Part shown: piece after piece, positions 5,597 to 30,850 of the stretch | How positions within the stretch are numbered: the stretch's first letter is position 1 | How the letters are laid out: the number at the start of each line of letters is the position of its first letter | From: a virus | Lineage: Duplodnaviria > Heunggongvirae > Uroviricota > Caudoviricetes | Virus record (IMG/VR): IMGVR_UViG_2563366976_000009 | Location: 1-30,850 of that record | Direction: 5' to 3' (one strand) | DNA length: 30,850 bases | Translations under genes and position numbers: made by a program | The notes under the pieces: model-generated | Database searches by the model: none | Told to the model about the DNA's origin: nothing | The model's input: only the letters and a program-made list of their open reading frames with translations

Positions 5597-6264
5597 ATAT
5601 CTACGAAAGAATTGATGGCAGCAAATACCGAAATATTTGGGTAGCTGGCGACCTGCACGGATGCTACACGAACCTGATGAACAAACTGGATACGATTGGA
5701 TTCGACACCAAAAAAGACCTGCTTATCTCGGTTGGCGATTTGGTTGATCGTGGTGCAGAGAACGTTGAATGCCTGGAATTAATCACATTCCCCTGGTTCA
5801 GAGCTGTACGTGGAAACCATGAGCACATGATGATTGATGGCTTATCAGAGCGTGGAAACGTCAATCACTGGCTGCTTAATGGCGGTGGCTGGTTCTTTAA
5901 TCTCGATTACGACAAAGAAATTCTGGCTAAAGCTCTTGCCCATAAAGCAGATGAACTTCCGTTAATCATCGAACTGGTGAGCAAAGATAAAAAATATGTC
6001 ATCTGCCACGCCGATTATCCTTGTGACGAATACGAGTTTGGAAAGCCAGTTGATCATCAGCAGGTAATCTGGAACCGCGAACGAATCAGCAACTCACAAG
6101 ACGGGATCGTGAAAGAAATCAAAGGCGCGGACATGTTCATCTTTGGTCATACGCCAGCAGTGAAACCGCTCAAATTTGCCAACCAGATGTATATCGATAC
6201 CGGCGCAGTGTTCTGCGGAAATCTCACATTGATTCAGGTACAGGGAGAAGGCGCGTGGGCATAA
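5593..6264 (+). CDS. Ser/Thr protein phosphatase (lambda orf221 / NinI-type).
   Basis: GDLHG, GDLVDRG, GNHE calcineurin-like metallophosphatase motifs; near-identical to remembered lambda phosphatase. Confidence 0.9.
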
Positions 6265-16936: not shown

Positions 16937-17125
16937 ATGTCTCAAATCATGCTTTATAAGCCGGGATCGATGATCACCTGCGGCCCCCACTCGCTGGATT
17001 ACATCATCGTTGATGACGAAGAAGTTAAATCTCACCTGAAAAAAGGCTGGGTAAAAACTCCTGAAGAAACCGCAACGAAGCAAAAAGTGGCTAAGGCGGA
17101 AGAAGATGGCGAAAACGAAGGGTGA
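16937..17125 (+). CDS. Hypothetical small protein (62 aa).
   Basis: GGAG RBS 6 nt before ATG 16937; no family recognised. Confidence 0.3.
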   Translation: MSQIMLYKPGSMITCGPHSLDYIIVDDEEVKSHLKKGWVKTPEETATKQKVAKAEEDGENEG

Positions 17126-17567
17126 TCTCGTTCTAAAGGCTTTACGAAAAGCCGGGCTGTATTCCAATGCCACGTTGACAGATGCTGACCCTCAGGCAAT
17201 TGAAGATGCCATTAATGACCTCGAAGACATGATGGCAGCATGGCAGGCTAAAGGTATCGAGCTTGGATATCAGTTTGCTGATACAGAAAACGGCATCATG
17301 CCGTTACCTGACGATGATTCAGGTATCCCTGCATGGGCAAATGATGGCGTCGCTTTGAAACTCGCTGTGCAAGTGTGCATGGATAACGTCATTCAGCCGT
17401 CAGACGCTCTCCTTACCGCTGCTGACAGTGCATATCAAACAATCTGTATCGCTTTAACCAAAATACCACCACTTGAGCGGCGAAATGATATGCCTCGCGG
17501 GGCGGGGTTAAAAAGCGCGTTTACGTGGAATCGGTTTTACATCGAGAAAGATGATCCGAGTACGTGA
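17106..17567 (+). CDS. Head-tail adaptor / tail accessory protein (P22 gp4-like by position and size).
   Basis: 153 aa; synteny with the P22 order 5-4-10-26. Confidence 0.5.
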   Translation: MAKTKGDLVLKALRKAGLYSNATLTDADPQAIEDAINDLEDMMAAWQAKGIELGYQFADTENGIMPLPDDDSGIPAWANDGVALKLAVQVCMDNVIQPSDALLTAADSAYQTICIALTKIPPLERRNDMPRGAGLKSAFTWNRFYIEKDDPST

Positions 17568-17576
17568 GGTGAATAA

Positions 17577-18995
17577 ATGCCGATTCAGCAACTTCCGCTT
17601 ATGAAAGGTGTCGGCAAAGACTTTCGAAACGCCGACTATATCGACTATCTGCCAGTGAATATGCTGGCTACGCCCAAAGAAATACTCAACAGCAGCGGAT
17701 ATCTTCGCTCATTCCCGGGCATTGCCAAACGTTCTGATGTGAACGGCGTATCGCGGGGCGTCGAGTACAACATGGCGCAGAATGCTGTTTATCGCGTATG
17801 TGGTGGTAAGCTGTACAAAGGAGAAAGTGAAGTCGGTGACGTCGCCGGAAGTGGTCGCGTATCAATGGCGCATGGTCGAACATCTCAGGCTGTAGGCGTT
17901 AATGGTCAACTGGTCGAGTATCGCTATGATGGTACGGTTAAAACCGTCTCAAACTGGCCTACAGACAGCGGATTCACGCAGTATGAGTTAGGCTCAGTCC
18001 GCGACATTACGCGATTACGTGGGCGTTATGCGTGGTCAAAAGACGGTACTGATTCATGGTTTATCACTGACCTTGAAGACGAATCTCATCCTGACCGCTA
18101 CAGCGCACAATATCGCGCAGAATCGCAGCCTGACGGCATCATCGGCATCGGAACATGGCGAGACTTCATCGTATGCTTTGGTTCATCAACGATTGAATAT
18201 TTCTCCCTGACTGGCGCAACCACCGTTGGTGCCGCGTTGTATGTCGCACAGCCATCACTGATGGTGCAGAAAGGAATTGCCGGAACCTACTGCAAAACGC
18301 CGTTTGCTGATTCGTATGCGTTCATCAGCAATCCGGCAACGGGTGCGCCGTCTGTGTACATCATCGGTTCCGGTCAGGTGTCACCAATCGCCAGCGCGAG
18401 CATTGAGAAAATCCTCCGCTCCTACACTGCTGATGAACTGGCTGATGGCGTGATGGAATCGTTGCGCTTTGATGCTCATGAGTTGCTGATTATCCACCTT
18501 CCGCGCCACGTCCTAGTATATGACGCATCTTCAAGCGCTAATGGTCCGCAATGGTGTGTGCTGAAAACAGGCTTGTATGACGATGTGTACCGCGCTATCG
18601 ACTTCATTTACGAAGGCAATCAGATAACGTGCGGAGATAAGCTGGAATCGGTTATCGGCAAATTGCAGTTCGATATCAGCAGCCAGTATGGGCTACAGCA
18701 AGAACACCTGTTGTTTACACCACTCTTCAAAGCTGAGAACGCCAGATGTTTTGATCTGGAAGTTGAATCATCGACTGGTGTCGCTCAGTACGCTGACCGC
18801 CTGTTCCTCTCTGCAACCACTGACGGCATCAATTGGGGAAAAGAGCAGATGATTGAGCAGAATGAACCGTTCGTTTACGACAAACGCGTTTTGTGGAAGC
18901 GAGTAGGGCGCATCAGGAAAAATGTCGGCTTCAAATTGCGCGTTATCACGAAGTCACCTGTCACTCTGTCTGGCGCTCAGATAAGGATCGAGTAA
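17577..18995 (+). CDS. Tail hub / tail accessory protein (P22 gp10-like).
   Basis: 472 aa, same length as P22 gp10; synteny. Confidence 0.55.
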
Positions 18996-25559: not shown

Positions 25560-26096
25560 TCAAACAACCCACCAGTTTGCCTGATTGGATACCAGCCTTG
25601 CAGTTTTTATGGAATTAATTATGCCATGCTCAAGAGCCTTGTTAGCATCCAAAATGGTCGAGTCTGCTATCAGGGATGCCCACCTAATATGGGTTCCGAT
25701 GTCGATATTGAACGTCTCAACGAAGCGATCAAGATCGTTATCGAGGCATTTCCCGTACTCTCTCAATCTGGCATGGTCGGCGGCTGGGGAGGCAAAGCAC
25801 CATAATAGAGGATGTAACAGGAATCTTGATAATGGGTTTGCGAAACGTTCTGAGCCAGCCAGGAAAACGATATTAGCTATGGATTCAACATTGCTTATGT
25901 TGTGAGTTCTAACGGTAACAGGGAGTGACTTAAGAAAGTTATACGCAGTAAAGCCAGCGGCAGTTTCCCCTCCCTGACTTGATATATGGATATTTAATTC
26001 AGTTGCGCCTTGAGATAATGCGGTGAGACAGTGGTTCTGAAGTTGCCCAACAGTGGCAGTGTTAACGGGGCATAAGAAATGAATTGTGTGCAGCAT
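25560..26096 (-). CDS. ClpP-fold (Clp protease-like) serine protease, 178 aa, translationally coupled to mnt.
   Basis: …IHISSQGGETAAGFTAYNFLKSLPVTVRTHNISNVESIANIVFLAGSERFANPLSRFLLHPL… aligns with the ClpP core (INSPGG…TAG…GQAASMG…LPNSRxMIHQP). The Ser and His positions appear conserved. Its ATG overlaps the mnt stop (TAATG). Confidence 0.6.
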   Translation of the reverse strand: MLHTIHFLCPVNTATVGQLQNHCLTALSQGATELNIHISSQGGETAAGFTAYNFLKSLPVTVRTHNISNVESIANIVFLAGSERFANPLSRFLLHPLLWCFASPAADHARLREYGKCLDNDLDRFVETFNIDIGTHIRWASLIADSTILDANKALEHGIINSIKTARLVSNQANWWVV

Positions 26097-26350: not shown

Positions 26351-26440
26351 GCCATCACCCCAAGTTAGTGTATTGACATGATAGAAGCACTCTACTATAT
26401 TCTCAATAGGTCCACAGTGGACCTATATTGTGAGGTAAAT
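26351..26440. promoter_or_regulatory. immI control region. Pant (-35 TTGACA 26373-26378, -10 TATATT 26396-26401); Arc operator ATGATAGAAGCACTCTACTAT (26378-26398); Mnt operator palindrome AGGTCCACAGTGGACCT (26408-26424); divergent Pmnt on the minus strand (TTGAGA-17-TATCAT).
   Basis: Sequence matches the remembered P22 Pant/Oarc/Omnt arrangement; hexamers and palindromes read directly. Confidence 0.7.
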
Positions 26441-26880: not shown

Positions 26881-27804
26881 ATGACGAGTGTAGCAATTGC
26901 AGAACATACAATCAACGTTCCATTCCACGGAACAAATCTCTTTTTGGTCAGCATTAACAATGAACCTTACGTTCCTATGAAACCCGTTGTAGAAGGCATG
27001 GGTATGGTTTGGGCTGCTCAATTTGTTAAATTAAAACAGAGATTTGTCAAAGGTATTTCGGAAATCGAAATACCTTCTGCTGGCGGTAAACAGTTAATGA
27101 TATGCCTTGCCTTTCGTAAGTTTGCGGCTTGGCTTTCAAGCATTCAGCCAAACAAAGTCCGCCCTGAAATCCGCGACAAGGTAATCCAGTATCAGGAAGA
27201 GTGTGACGATGTGCTCTACGAGTACTGGACTAAAGGCCATGTGGTTAACCCGCGCAAAGCTAAAAAGGCATTGCCGGGGAAAATCACCACTGAACAGCAG
27301 GAAGCCATTAAACAACTCGTCATGAGTCGCGGTCAGTCTCTGCCAAAAGAAAAACAGGCTAAGGCGATGATCACCATGTGGTCGTCACTGAAATCCCATT
27401 TTGGGTGTTCATACAAAGAAATCAGCGAGGAGCAGTTTACCGAAGCTCTGTCACTTGCTGCTCGCGTTCCGCTTGAAGGTGAGTTCATTGGCAAACAAGA
27501 GAAGAAAACCAACGAGCTTTCTGCAAAAGAAGCAAACAGCCTTGTATGGTTATGGGATTATGCCAACCGTTCACAGGCATTATTCCGCGAATTGTATCCG
27601 GCGCTAAAACAAATTCAATCGAACTATTCAGGCAGATGTCATGACTGCGGTTATGAGTTCTCCCGTATTATCGATATGGCGAGAGATGTTTTAATCAACC
27701 ATACACGAGATGTTGATATTAATGAGCCAGGCGGACCGACGAACCTTTCAGCATGGATAAGACTTAAGAATAAAGAATTACCTCCTTCAGTACATAACTA
27801 CTGA
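26881..27804 (+). CDS. ant: Antirepressor Ant.
   Basis: N-terminal …VPFHGTNLFLV…PYVPMKPVVEGMGMVW…PEIRDKVIQYQEECDDVLYEYWTKG parallels remembered P22 Ant; position after arc. Confidence 0.8.
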   Translation: MTSVAIAEHTINVPFHGTNLFLVSINNEPYVPMKPVVEGMGMVWAAQFVKLKQRFVKGISEIEIPSAGGKQLMICLAFRKFAAWLSSIQPNKVRPEIRDKVIQYQEECDDVLYEYWTKGHVVNPRKAKKALPGKITTEQQEAIKQLVMSRGQSLPKEKQAKAMITMWSSLKSHFGCSYKEISEEQFTEALSLAARVPLEGEFIGKQEKKTNELSAKEANSLVWLWDYANRSQALFRELYPALKQIQSNYSGRCHDCGYEFSRIIDMARDVLINHTRDVDINEPGGPTNLSAWIRLKNKELPPSVHNY

Positions 27805-27822
27805 CAGATAACCAACGCAACG

Positions 27823-27847
27823 ACCCAGCTTCGGCTGGGTTTTTTTA
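27823..27847 (+). terminator. Rho-independent terminator after ant.
   Basis: ACCCAGC-ttcg-GCTGGGT stem followed by TTTTTTT. Confidence 0.7.
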
Positions 27848-27904
27848 TGCCCAAAATTCACCGTAGCCATGCTGCGGCGATTCCTTGTGTCTGGAGCAAA
27901 TTAA

Positions 27905-30850
27905 ATGAGAGACATTACAGCCAATGTGATCGTATCGATGCCTTCGCAACTCTTCACTATGGCGCGTTCTTTTAAAGCCGTAGCCAATGGCAAAATTTAT
28001 ATCGGTAAAATTGACACTGACCCTGTAAATCCTGAAAACCAGATTCAGGTTTATGTGGAAAACGAAGACGGCTCTCACGTTCCTGTTTCGCAACCAATCA
28101 TCATTAACGCTGCTGGATATCCTGTATATAACGGACAGATTGCCAAATTCGTAACTGTGCAAGGCCATTCTATGGCTGTTTATGATGCGTATGGTGCGCA
28201 GCAGTTCTATTTTCCGAATGTGCTGAAGTATGATCCTGATCAGTTACGGCGGCAATTAGAAGACCCAGATGGAGCGAATAAATACCCAAAACTTCAGATA
28301 GCAAGATGGAGAGACAGTTATGATGTAAGAGGTTGGGGGGCTATTGGTGATGGTGTTCATGATGATACATCAGCTCTATCAGAATTACTTTCTGTTGCAA
28401 CAGGTGGTGAAAAGATAGATGGGCGAGGGCTTACTTTTAAAGTATCAAATCTTCCGGATGTCAGTCGATTTAAAAATGCTCGTTTTTTATTTGAGAGAAT
28501 ACCGGGTCAGCCTCTTTTTTATGCTTCTGAAGATTTTATCCAGGGAGAGTTATTTAAAATTACAGATACACCGTGGTACAACGCCTGGACGCAGGATAAA
28601 ACGTTTGTATATGACAATGTCATCTATGCGCCTTTTATGGCTGGAGACCGCCATGGTGTAAATAACCTCCATGTTGCATGGGTTCGCTCAGGAGATGACG
28701 GGAAGACCTGGACAACGCCGGAATGGCTTACAGATTTACATGAAAACTATCCCACAGTTAACTATCACTGCATGAGTATGGGGGTTGTCAGAAATCGCCT
28801 TTTTGCTGTAATTGAGACGCGGACCGTGAGAGGAAATAAACTGCAGGTTGCAGAGTTGTGGGATCGCCCAATGAGTCGCAGCCTTCGCGTTTATGGTGGT
28901 ATAACGAAAGCAGCAAATCAGCAAGTCGCTTATATTCGCATTACTGATCACGGATTATTTGCTGGTGATTTTGTCAACTTCTCAAACTCTGGTGTTACAG
29001 GTGTTACCGGGAATATGACGGTGACTACTGTTATTGATAAAAATACTTTTACAGTTACGACGCAAAATACCCAGGATGTGGATCAGAATAACGAGGGTAG
29101 ATACTGGAGTTTTGGTACATCATTTCACTCGTCACCATGGAGAAAAACCAGTCTTGGAACTATTCCTTCTTTTGTTGACGGAAGCACTCCTGTTACTGAG
29201 ATTCACAGTTTTGCGACGATTAGCGATAACAGTTTTGCTGTTGGCTACCATAATGGTGATATTGGTCCACGCGAGCTTGGGATACTCTATTTCTCTGATG
29301 CTTTCGGTTCTCCTGGTAGCTTTGTTCGCAGACGCATACCTGCAGAATATGAGGCGAATGCATCTGAGCCATGTGTAAAATATTATGATGGCATTCTGTA
29401 TCTGACGACCAGGGGGACATTAAGTACTCAACCCGGTAGTTCATTGCACAGAAGCTCTGATTTAGGTACATCATGGAATTCTCTTCGCTTCCCAAATAAT
29501 GTTCATCACTCAAACCTTCCTTTTGCCAAAGTTGGCGATGAGCTGATTATTTTTGGCAGTGAGCGCGCATTTGGTGAGTGGGAAGGAGGAGAACCTGATA
29601 ACCGTTATGCAGGAAATTATCCAAGAACATTTATGACCAGAGTTAACGTCAATGAGTGGAGTCTGGATAATGTAGAGTGGGTTAATGTTACTGATCAGAT
29701 TTATCAGGGCGGAATAGTTAACTCTGCGGTTGGTGTTGGTTCAGTTTGTATCAAAGACAACTGGCTGTACTACATTTTCGGTGGGGAAGACTTTCTAAAC
29801 CCATGGAGCATAGGGGATAACAACAGAAAATATCCTTATGTTCACGATGGTCACCCGGCTGATTTATATTGTTTCAGGGTGAAAATCAAACAGGAAGAAT
29901 TTGTTTCAAGGGATTTTGTCTACGGAGCCACTCCTAACAGAACGCTTCCTACTTTGATGTCGACGTCAGGCGTGAGGACGGTTCCTGTACCCGTTGATTT
30001 CACAGATGATGTTGCCGTCCAGTCACTGACTGTCCATGCAGGTACATCAGGACAAGTTCGCGCGGAAGTCAAACTTGAGGGTAATTACGCCATTATTGCG
30101 AAGAAAGTACCGTCTGATGATGTTACCGCTCAGAGATTAATCGTTAGCGGCGGTGAAACAACGTCTTCAGCAGATGGTGCAATGATAACGTTGCATGGTT
30201 CCAGAAGCAGTACTCCACGTCGCGCGGTATATAACGCACTCGAACATCTTTTTGAGAACGGAGATGTTAAACCTTATCTTGATAATGTAAATGCTCTTGG
30301 TGGTCCGGGAAACAGGTTCTCGACAGTTTATCTTGGCTCCAATCCTGTGGTTACCAGTGACGGAACATTAAAGACAGAGCCGGTCTCTCCTGACGAAGCA
30401 TTGCTGGATGCCTGGGGTGACGTCAGGTATATCGCTTATAAATGGCTGAACGCTGTCGCTATAAAGGGGGAAGAAGGGGCGAGGATACATCATGGTGTAA
30501 TCGCGCAGCAACTTCGTGATGTTCTTATTTCTCACGGACTCATGGAAGAAGAAAGCACAACATGCCGCTATGCCTTTCTTTGCTATGACGATTATCCCGC
30601 AGTATATGATGACGTCATTACTGGCCAAAGGGAAATGCCGCTGACTGATAATGACGGGAGCATCATTGTTGATGAGGATGATAATCCAGTGATGGTAATG
30701 GAAGACATCATTGAGCGCGTTGAAATAACGCCAGCAGGATCTAGATGGGGGGTCAGACCTGATCTCTTATTCTATATCGAGGCGGCATGGCAGCGCAGAG
30801 AAATGGATAAGATAAAAGCTAGGTTAGACTTAATAGAAGGGAAGCACTAA
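27905..30850 (+). CDS. Tailspike: N-terminal P22-type head-binding domain fused to an endosialidase (endo-N-acetylneuraminidase) with a C-terminal intramolecular chaperone domain.
   Basis: N-terminus [11 protein letters not shown]…[38 protein letters not shown]…[15 protein letters not shown]…NVLKYDPDQ matches remembered P22 gp9 residues 1-110. GDGVHDDT motif, two Asp-boxes (SGDDGKTW near 28687-28710; SSDLGTSW near 29450-29475), and a C-terminal …[12 protein letters not shown]…[15 protein letters not shown]…WGVRPDLLF…AAWQRR… chaperone domain, as in K1-phage endosialidases. Stop codon at the last 3 nt of the window. Confidence 0.85.

Follow-up and report, generated by a model that had tools for sequence, protein, structure and literature searches.

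The last gene of the DNA analysed here raises the question of which host surface a P22-like phage would attack with its tailspike, and whether the protein in question is of a new type. The window, i.e. the whole stretch of 30,850 nucleotides under analysis, makes up three quarters of a genome of the P22-like kind, on its right-hand side. It carries genes for a DnaB-type helicase, terminase, P22 portal, scaffold, coat, gp4, gp10, gp7 and gp20, with the tailspike gene as the last one; an immI-like region comprising Arc/Mnt, a ClpP-like ORF and ant is also present. The initial annotation had described the product of the last gene as a chimera of a P22 head-binding domain and an endosialidase with a C-terminal chaperone, and had predicted from this a depolymerase of the K1 capsule.

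The gene is a complete ORF for a siaK1-type endosialidase tailspike, located at positions 27905 to 30850; like its upstream signals and all segments of the protein described below, it lies on the plus strand. It starts with ATG, runs uninterrupted over 981 codons and ends with a stop codon that forms the final three bases of the window; the precursor has a calculated mass of 109.4 kDa. As read from the sequence, a ribosome-binding site GGAG (27893 to 27896) is situated 8 nt 5′ of the start codon. The antirepressor gene ant (26881 to 27804) precedes the tailspike gene, and between the two lies a terminator-like hairpin (27822 to 27846) with an 8-bp stem including 5 GC pairs, which is followed by the T-run TTTTTAT. 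Compared with the 'bsq1' boundary region of CUS-3, this stretch shows 3 differences in 120 positions. Short minus-strand and out-of-frame ORFs within the tailspike gene were discounted because they lie inside a strongly conserved coding frame.

The domain architecture of the protein was analysed with a Pfam search, in which six domains exceeded the curated cut-offs with scores far beyond chance, and all modules named in the initial annotation were recovered. The protein begins with a P22-type head-binding (particle-binding) domain that ends in a YDPDQ hinge (aa 1-113, positions 27905 to 28243; Head_binding PF09008, aligned along all 113 positions of the model with 221.5 bits and E = 2.4e-66). 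It continues with a neck or linker (aa 114-145, 28244 to 28339), where the homology to the K1F and phi92 endosialidases sets in, and with the endosialidase N-terminal extension (aa 146-212, 28340 to 28540; End_N_terminal PF12218, E = 1.5e-36), within which the motif GDGVHDDT was found at aa 148-155 (28346 to 28369). The catalytic domain is a six-bladed beta-propeller (aa 213-662, 28541 to 29890; End_beta_propel PF12217, E = 5.4e-233), matched over the full length of the model (1-367 of 367) and scoring 772.9 bits, the cut-off being 24. It contains the two expected Asp-boxes of the form S-x-D-x-G-x-x-W, namely SGDDGKTW at aa 262-269 (28688 to 28711) and SSDLGTSW at aa 517-524 (29453 to 29476), and both positions are kept in the aligned K1F and phi92 proteins. 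Nested in the propeller is a beta-barrel (aa 324-406, 28874 to 29122; End_beta_barrel PF12195, E = 1.2e-46) that would bind polysialic acid by homology. The propeller is followed by the stalk, a triple beta-helix and beta-prism (aa 663-817, 29891 to 30355; End_tail_spike PF12219, E = 1.9e-77), which ends at T817, the predicted mature C-terminus. The remainder (aa 818-981, 30356 to 30847, 18.7 kDa) is the C-terminal intramolecular chaperone and autocleavage domain; here Peptidase_S74 (PF13884) covers aa 818-878, directly after the triple beta-helix, with 41.5 bits (E = 1.6e-10), above the cut-off of 22. The phage endosialidase (endo-N-acetylneuraminidase) family to which these domains belong is GH58 of the CAZy classification.

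The first roughly 110 residues had been attributed to the particle-binding domain of P22 gp9. Their P22-type nature stands, but the attribution to P22 itself needs refinement, since over aa 1-113 the anchor is nearer to Sf6 gp14 (91% identity) than to P22 gp9 (75%). The homology to both proteins stops at YDPDQ (aa 109-113), with no similarity past approximately aa 118. In the alignment with K1F gp17 and phi92 gp143, homology runs from aa 114 to the C-terminus, and the identity to these two proteins amounts to 56% and 62%, respectively, over aa 114-145, compared with 20% and 4% over aa 1-113. Because the P22/Sf6 similarity ends and the K1F/phi92 homology begins there, the fusion junction was placed at aa 113/114, and the chimeric nature of the protein was thereby confirmed. 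The tailspikes P22 gp9 and Sf6 gp14 (PDB 1LKT, 2XC1 and 7SG7) share the particle-binding domain up to YDPDQ with the window tailspike; unlike the latter, they have right-handed beta-helix endorhamnosidases acting on O-antigen as receptor-binding parts, and they are devoid of an S74 chaperone.

Among solved structures, the top matches of aa 145-817 were the K1F endosialidase endoNF (1V0E/3GVL) with 1049 bits and the phi92 endosialidase endoN92 (4HIZ) with 907 bits. The window tailspike is approximately 62% identical to crystallised endoNF over aa 146-981, and for the propeller domain the identity is 69% to K1F and 66% to endoN92. Taken over all domains, each is spanned by solved structures at 62-91% identity. 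The organisation of K1F gp17/endoNF (PDB 1V0E, 3GVL and 3GW6), with a propeller and nested barrel, a stalk and an autocleaving C-terminal domain, is the same as in the window tailspike; the differences are that K1F is anchored by a T7-gp17-type N-terminus (aa 1-245) instead of a P22-type head-binding domain, and that it does not possess the seven residues FVDGSTP found at aa 423-429 of the window tailspike. That the protein is a non-sialidase beta-helix tailspike of the P22, Sf6 or HK620 type, in which Asp-box-like motifs have arisen fortuitously, can practically be dismissed, as no similarity to the catalytic domains of these three tailspikes was found past aa 118 and all matches beyond this residue were endosialidases, with E = 0. 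The Pfam and structure matches likewise exclude a protein closest to beta-helix tailspikes and devoid of Asp-boxes.

Inspection of the active site agreed with the assignment as an endosialidase. In the alignment with K1F gp17 the endoNF residues H350, R549, E581, R596 and R647 correspond to H250, R456, E488, R503 and R554 of the window tailspike and are all conserved, as are the counterparts of endoNF Q330, D331, H527, S528, K585 and N699. When the K1F tailspike was subjected to deep mutational scanning, these active-site and supporting positions proved critical or intolerant to substitution (PMC12632334). Two of the positions at which endoNF contacts polysialic acid are changed, K410 to G310 and Q853 to M760, and CUS-3 has both changes as well. 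K410 of endoNF was dispensable in a phage-based screen (PMC12632334). Q853 belongs to the binding site in the stalk, where R837 and S848 are conserved as R744 and S755.

The C-terminal part had been proposed to be a chaperone of the kind that is auto-cleaved in the endosialidases of K1 phages, and the comparison with endoNF bears this out. The structure 3GW6 (endoNF-CTD, stalk and chaperone) matches aa 698-979 with E = 5.3e-94. In the K1F record the boundary between the mature chain and the C-terminal domain lies at aa 910/911, and in the alignment T910 and S911 have T817 and S818 of the window tailspike as their counterparts. In endoNF, autocleavage requires the Ser-Lys dyad S911/K916 and R897 of the stalk (PMC8326128); these residues are all conserved, as S818/K823 and R804. 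Autocleavage is thus predicted by homology to take place between T817 and S818, for which products of 90.8 kDa (mature chain) and 18.7 kDa (C-terminal domain) were calculated.

As to whether the protein is new, the comparison with CUS-3, a prophage of Escherichia coli K1, was decisive. In a megablast search against phage records, siaK1 of CUS-3 (CP000711) was matched with 100% coverage and 99.0% DNA identity, and 968 of the 981 amino acids (98.7%) are identical to those of CUS-3 SiaK1 (ABQ88383.1/CAJ29292.1) with zero gaps. The length of 981 aa, the domain order, the fusion junction and the layout of ant, terminator and tailspike are all equal in CUS-3, in keeping with the CUS-3-like host range that had been predicted. 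The GenBank record of CUS-3 names an 'endosialidase tailspike protein' whose endo-alpha-sialidase activity is marked IDA, citing PMID 16689790; this annotation, together with a review, is the source for the experimental standing of the CUS-3 enzyme. The review gives its mass as 109 kDa, which compares well with the precursor computed here. It further describes an N-terminal domain common to CUS-3, HK620, Sf6 and P22 and an endosialidase common to CUS-3 and K1F, the latter being joined to a T7-type N-terminus in K1F; the same fusion as in the window tailspike is therefore on record, as the initial annotation had indicated in speaking of a known type of chimera. On account of the 98.7% identity to an enzyme marked IDA in GenBank, we infer that the window tailspike would endo-cleave alpha-2,8-polysialic acid.

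The two alleles differ at 30 nucleotides, half of them in codons with a changed amino acid, and none of the differences introduces a frameshift or a stop. Eight of the 13 resulting amino-acid substitutions recur in the allele of Escherichia coli VR50, in that of phage ZX5 or in both, and T2R, T182N and F684L are private to the window among the compared alleles. When the 13 substitutions were checked for catalytic, binding and cleavage residues, none was found to fall on such a residue. This bears on the idea that the substrate range is shifted relative to the canonical K1 endosialidase, e.g. towards the alternating alpha-2,8/2,9-polysialic acid of K92, as for endoN92, or towards an altered tolerance of O-acetylated K1. 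The window tailspike is as close to endoN92 as to endoNF (58% overall identity to endoN92, besides the value for the propeller given above); it has M at the stalk-site position of Q853, where phi92 has L; the stalk has been likened to a tuning knob for specificity (PMC12632334); and the carrier prophage is without neuO. Nevertheless, a shifted range is considered very improbable for an allele with 98.7% identity to SiaK1, the enzyme of a K1 phage, and with 0 of 13 differences at a site known to serve binding or catalysis. The window tailspike is an already known, characterised type of protein, and as a feature it is ordinary; the initial annotation was correct.

The phage in which the gene resides was then compared with CUS-3 as a whole. 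The two are not the same phage: from position 6000 to 30850, 57% of the window aligns to CP000711, in 10 pieces and with 94.6% identity. The carrier prophage is a mosaic relative of CUS-3. The window encodes the tail hub proteins gp4 (P22_Tail-4, 17106 to 17564) and gp10 (Phage_stabilise, 17577 to 18992), so that the head-binding domain has cognate docking partners in its own phage, as well as the ejection proteins gp7 and gp20. All of the morphogenesis ORFs that were checked (terminase, portal, scaffold, coat, gp4, gp10, gp7 and gp20) are intact and of normal size.

By an exact look-up of the protein, the gene was located on contig KB732669.1 (GCA_000351465.1), with which the window sequence agrees exactly. 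On this contig the stop codon of the tailspike gene is followed by approximately 690 bp and then by torT-torR-torC-torA. A remnant of the 3′ end of a CUS-3-type int is present after the tailspike gene. In CUS-3 the order is siaK1-neuO-int-attL at the tRNA gene argW, whereas here the prophage end abuts torT, and neither the 836-bp neuO cassette of CUS-3 nor its AAGACTC repeats were found on KB732669.1. The junction between tailspike gene and torT is common to seven complete E. coli genomes, among them that of VR50, in which a prophage of the same type is flanked by torS and torT and has int and xis on its torS side. The early region of the VR50 copy contains an IS3 as well as pseudogenes.

These observations also bear on the possibility that the gene, although intact, is no more than a relic of a prophage that is defective or cryptic, its tailspike never being displayed on a functional virion. 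Decay of such prophages does happen, since insertions of IS903B or IS3 interrupt this gene in related E. coli genomes (M15 and MS20654), and both the int remnant on the source contig and the IS3 and pseudogenes of the VR50 copy would fit a relic. On the other hand, the tailspike ORF is of full length in the window, the morphogenesis ORFs are undamaged, and the 30 nucleotide differences from CUS-3 have left the reading frame open. A relic is therefore regarded as unlikely, and a tailspike that functions on a virion is preferred.

The endosialidase part of the protein was also found on a phage with a different anchor. The tail protein of the Uetakevirus vB_EcoP_ZX5 (QTH80017.1) carries the same endosialidase cassette, with 4 differences across residues 174-971 of the window tailspike and 99.7% DNA identity over nt 522-2914 of the gene. 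It differs in its last 10 residues and in an unrelated N-terminal anchor of approximately 230 aa, which belongs to an epsilon15-like chassis. The cassette was seen on P22-like phages both at argW, together with neuO, and at torS/torT, where neuO may be present or absent, and on ZX5, which is epsilon15-like. It is only tentatively suggested that the CUS-3-type endosialidase cassette circulates near-invariant, with 99% identity or more, among temperate podophages that are unrelated in chassis and attachment site, and that the window may stand for a formally undescribed lineage of K1 prophages that integrate at torS/torT and lack neuO. The finding is modestly new in its context only, that is, for the cassette on a neuO-less P22-like prophage at torS/torT and on ZX5 with a different anchor.

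Taken together, the gene most probably (with a probability of about 93%) codes for a receptor-destroying tailspike, used by a temperate, P22-like podophage to infect E. coli with a K1 capsule. Starting from the domain architecture, the conserved residues, the near-identity to CUS-3 SiaK1 and the tail genes of the window, and by homology as regards enzymatic activity, cleavage and K1 host range, the following course of events is proposed. The C-terminal chaperone domain (aa 818-981) would nucleate the trimerisation of the 109-kDa precursor. Once the triple beta-helix of the stalk has folded, the Ser818-Lys823 dyad, aided by Arg804, would cut between Thr817 and Ser818, which would free the 18.7-kDa chaperone and leave a stable mature trimer of 90.8-kDa chains. 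The P22/Sf6-type domain (aa 1-113) would dock this trimer on the tail hub of gp4 and gp10. The sites in propeller, beta-barrel and stalk would then bind alpha-2,8-polysialic acid and endo-cleave it, whereby the virion may tunnel across the K1 capsule and reach the outer membrane. For the K1 host range of the phage, support without proof comes from VR50, a K1 lysogen (serotype OR:K1:H-, PMC8281228) that carries a prophage of the same type.

A CUS-3-type fusion was reportedly published by Stummeyer et al. in 2006 and the allele is 98.7% identical to that of CUS-3, and the window tailspike therefore holds no new biology, its use being one of annotation. K1 is the capsule type of neonatal-meningitis E. 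coli and of extraintestinal pathogenic E. coli (ExPEC), and endosialidases of this family serve as polysialic-acid reagents. In this setting the gene would be a reliable marker that a phage or lysogen lineage targets K1 (polysialic-acid) E. coli.

The tailspike protein encoded at positions 27905-30850 on the plus strand of the window (981 aa) differs from endoNF, the crystallised endosialidase of phage K1F, at the following sites among others, and the tailspike of the E. coli K1 prophage CUS-3 does likewise at each of them. In the window protein a propeller loop is longer by the seven residues FVDGSTP (aa 423-429, window 29171-29191), K410 of endoNF is replaced by G at aa 310, and Q853, a binding position in the stalk, is replaced by M at aa 760. 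At these sites phi92 is also unlike endoNF.

Upstream of the tailspike gene, a strong terminator-like hairpin that is kept in CUS-3 was located between the antirepressor gene ant and the tailspike gene (27822-27846, plus strand), and expression of the tailspike presumably requires antitermination of the late operon, as in P22. In the immI-like region, a ClpP-like ORF of 178 aa (window 25560-26096, minus strand; Pfam CLP_protease, E 2.2e-11) adjoins the Arc/Mnt genes; this ORF is annotated in E. coli CU37RT-2 and is without annotation in the CUS-3 record. Between the divergent Arc-family genes, face-to-face matches to sigma-70-like promoters were identified on both strands (window 26373-26406; 11/12 and 10/12), an arrangement which we take to resemble Pant/Pmnt of P22.

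In the source genome, torT-torR-torC-torA follow directly beyond the tailspike gene, just past the window end (contig KB732669.1). The 836-bp neuO O-acetyltransferase contingency cassette with its AAGACTC repeats, which is present in CUS-3, is missing 3′ of the tailspike gene in this contig (piece L006, 8947-9636), where approximately 330 bp of CUS-3-like sequence are left, among them the final 84 nt of int from CUS-3. An acyltransferase does occupy that spot in two further genomes that share this torT junction. The same type of prophage was found between torS and torT of E. coli VR50 (NZ_CP011134.1, 1082389-1125171), which is a K1 strain (OR:K1:H-) and belongs to phylogroup A; integrase and excisionase adjoin torS. 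The attachment site of the VR50 prophage at torS/torT differs from that of CUS-3, which lies at argW.

The tailspike gene is interrupted by an IS903B or an IS3-family element in E. coli M15 (NZ_CP185789.1) and MS20654 (NZ_CP082083.1), and therefore the prophage tailspike is sometimes inactivated. The same endosialidase cassette was also detected, behind an unrelated N-terminal anchor, in the Uetakevirus vB_EcoP_ZX5, an epsilon15-like temperate phage (QTH80017.1; positions 2303-5422 of L002, a piece of the ZX5 record). The ZX5 protein and the window protein differ by 4 amino acids across aa 174-971 (numbered as in the latter), with a DNA identity of 99.7%. This likeness of the cassettes points to a recent exchange of the module between podophage genera.
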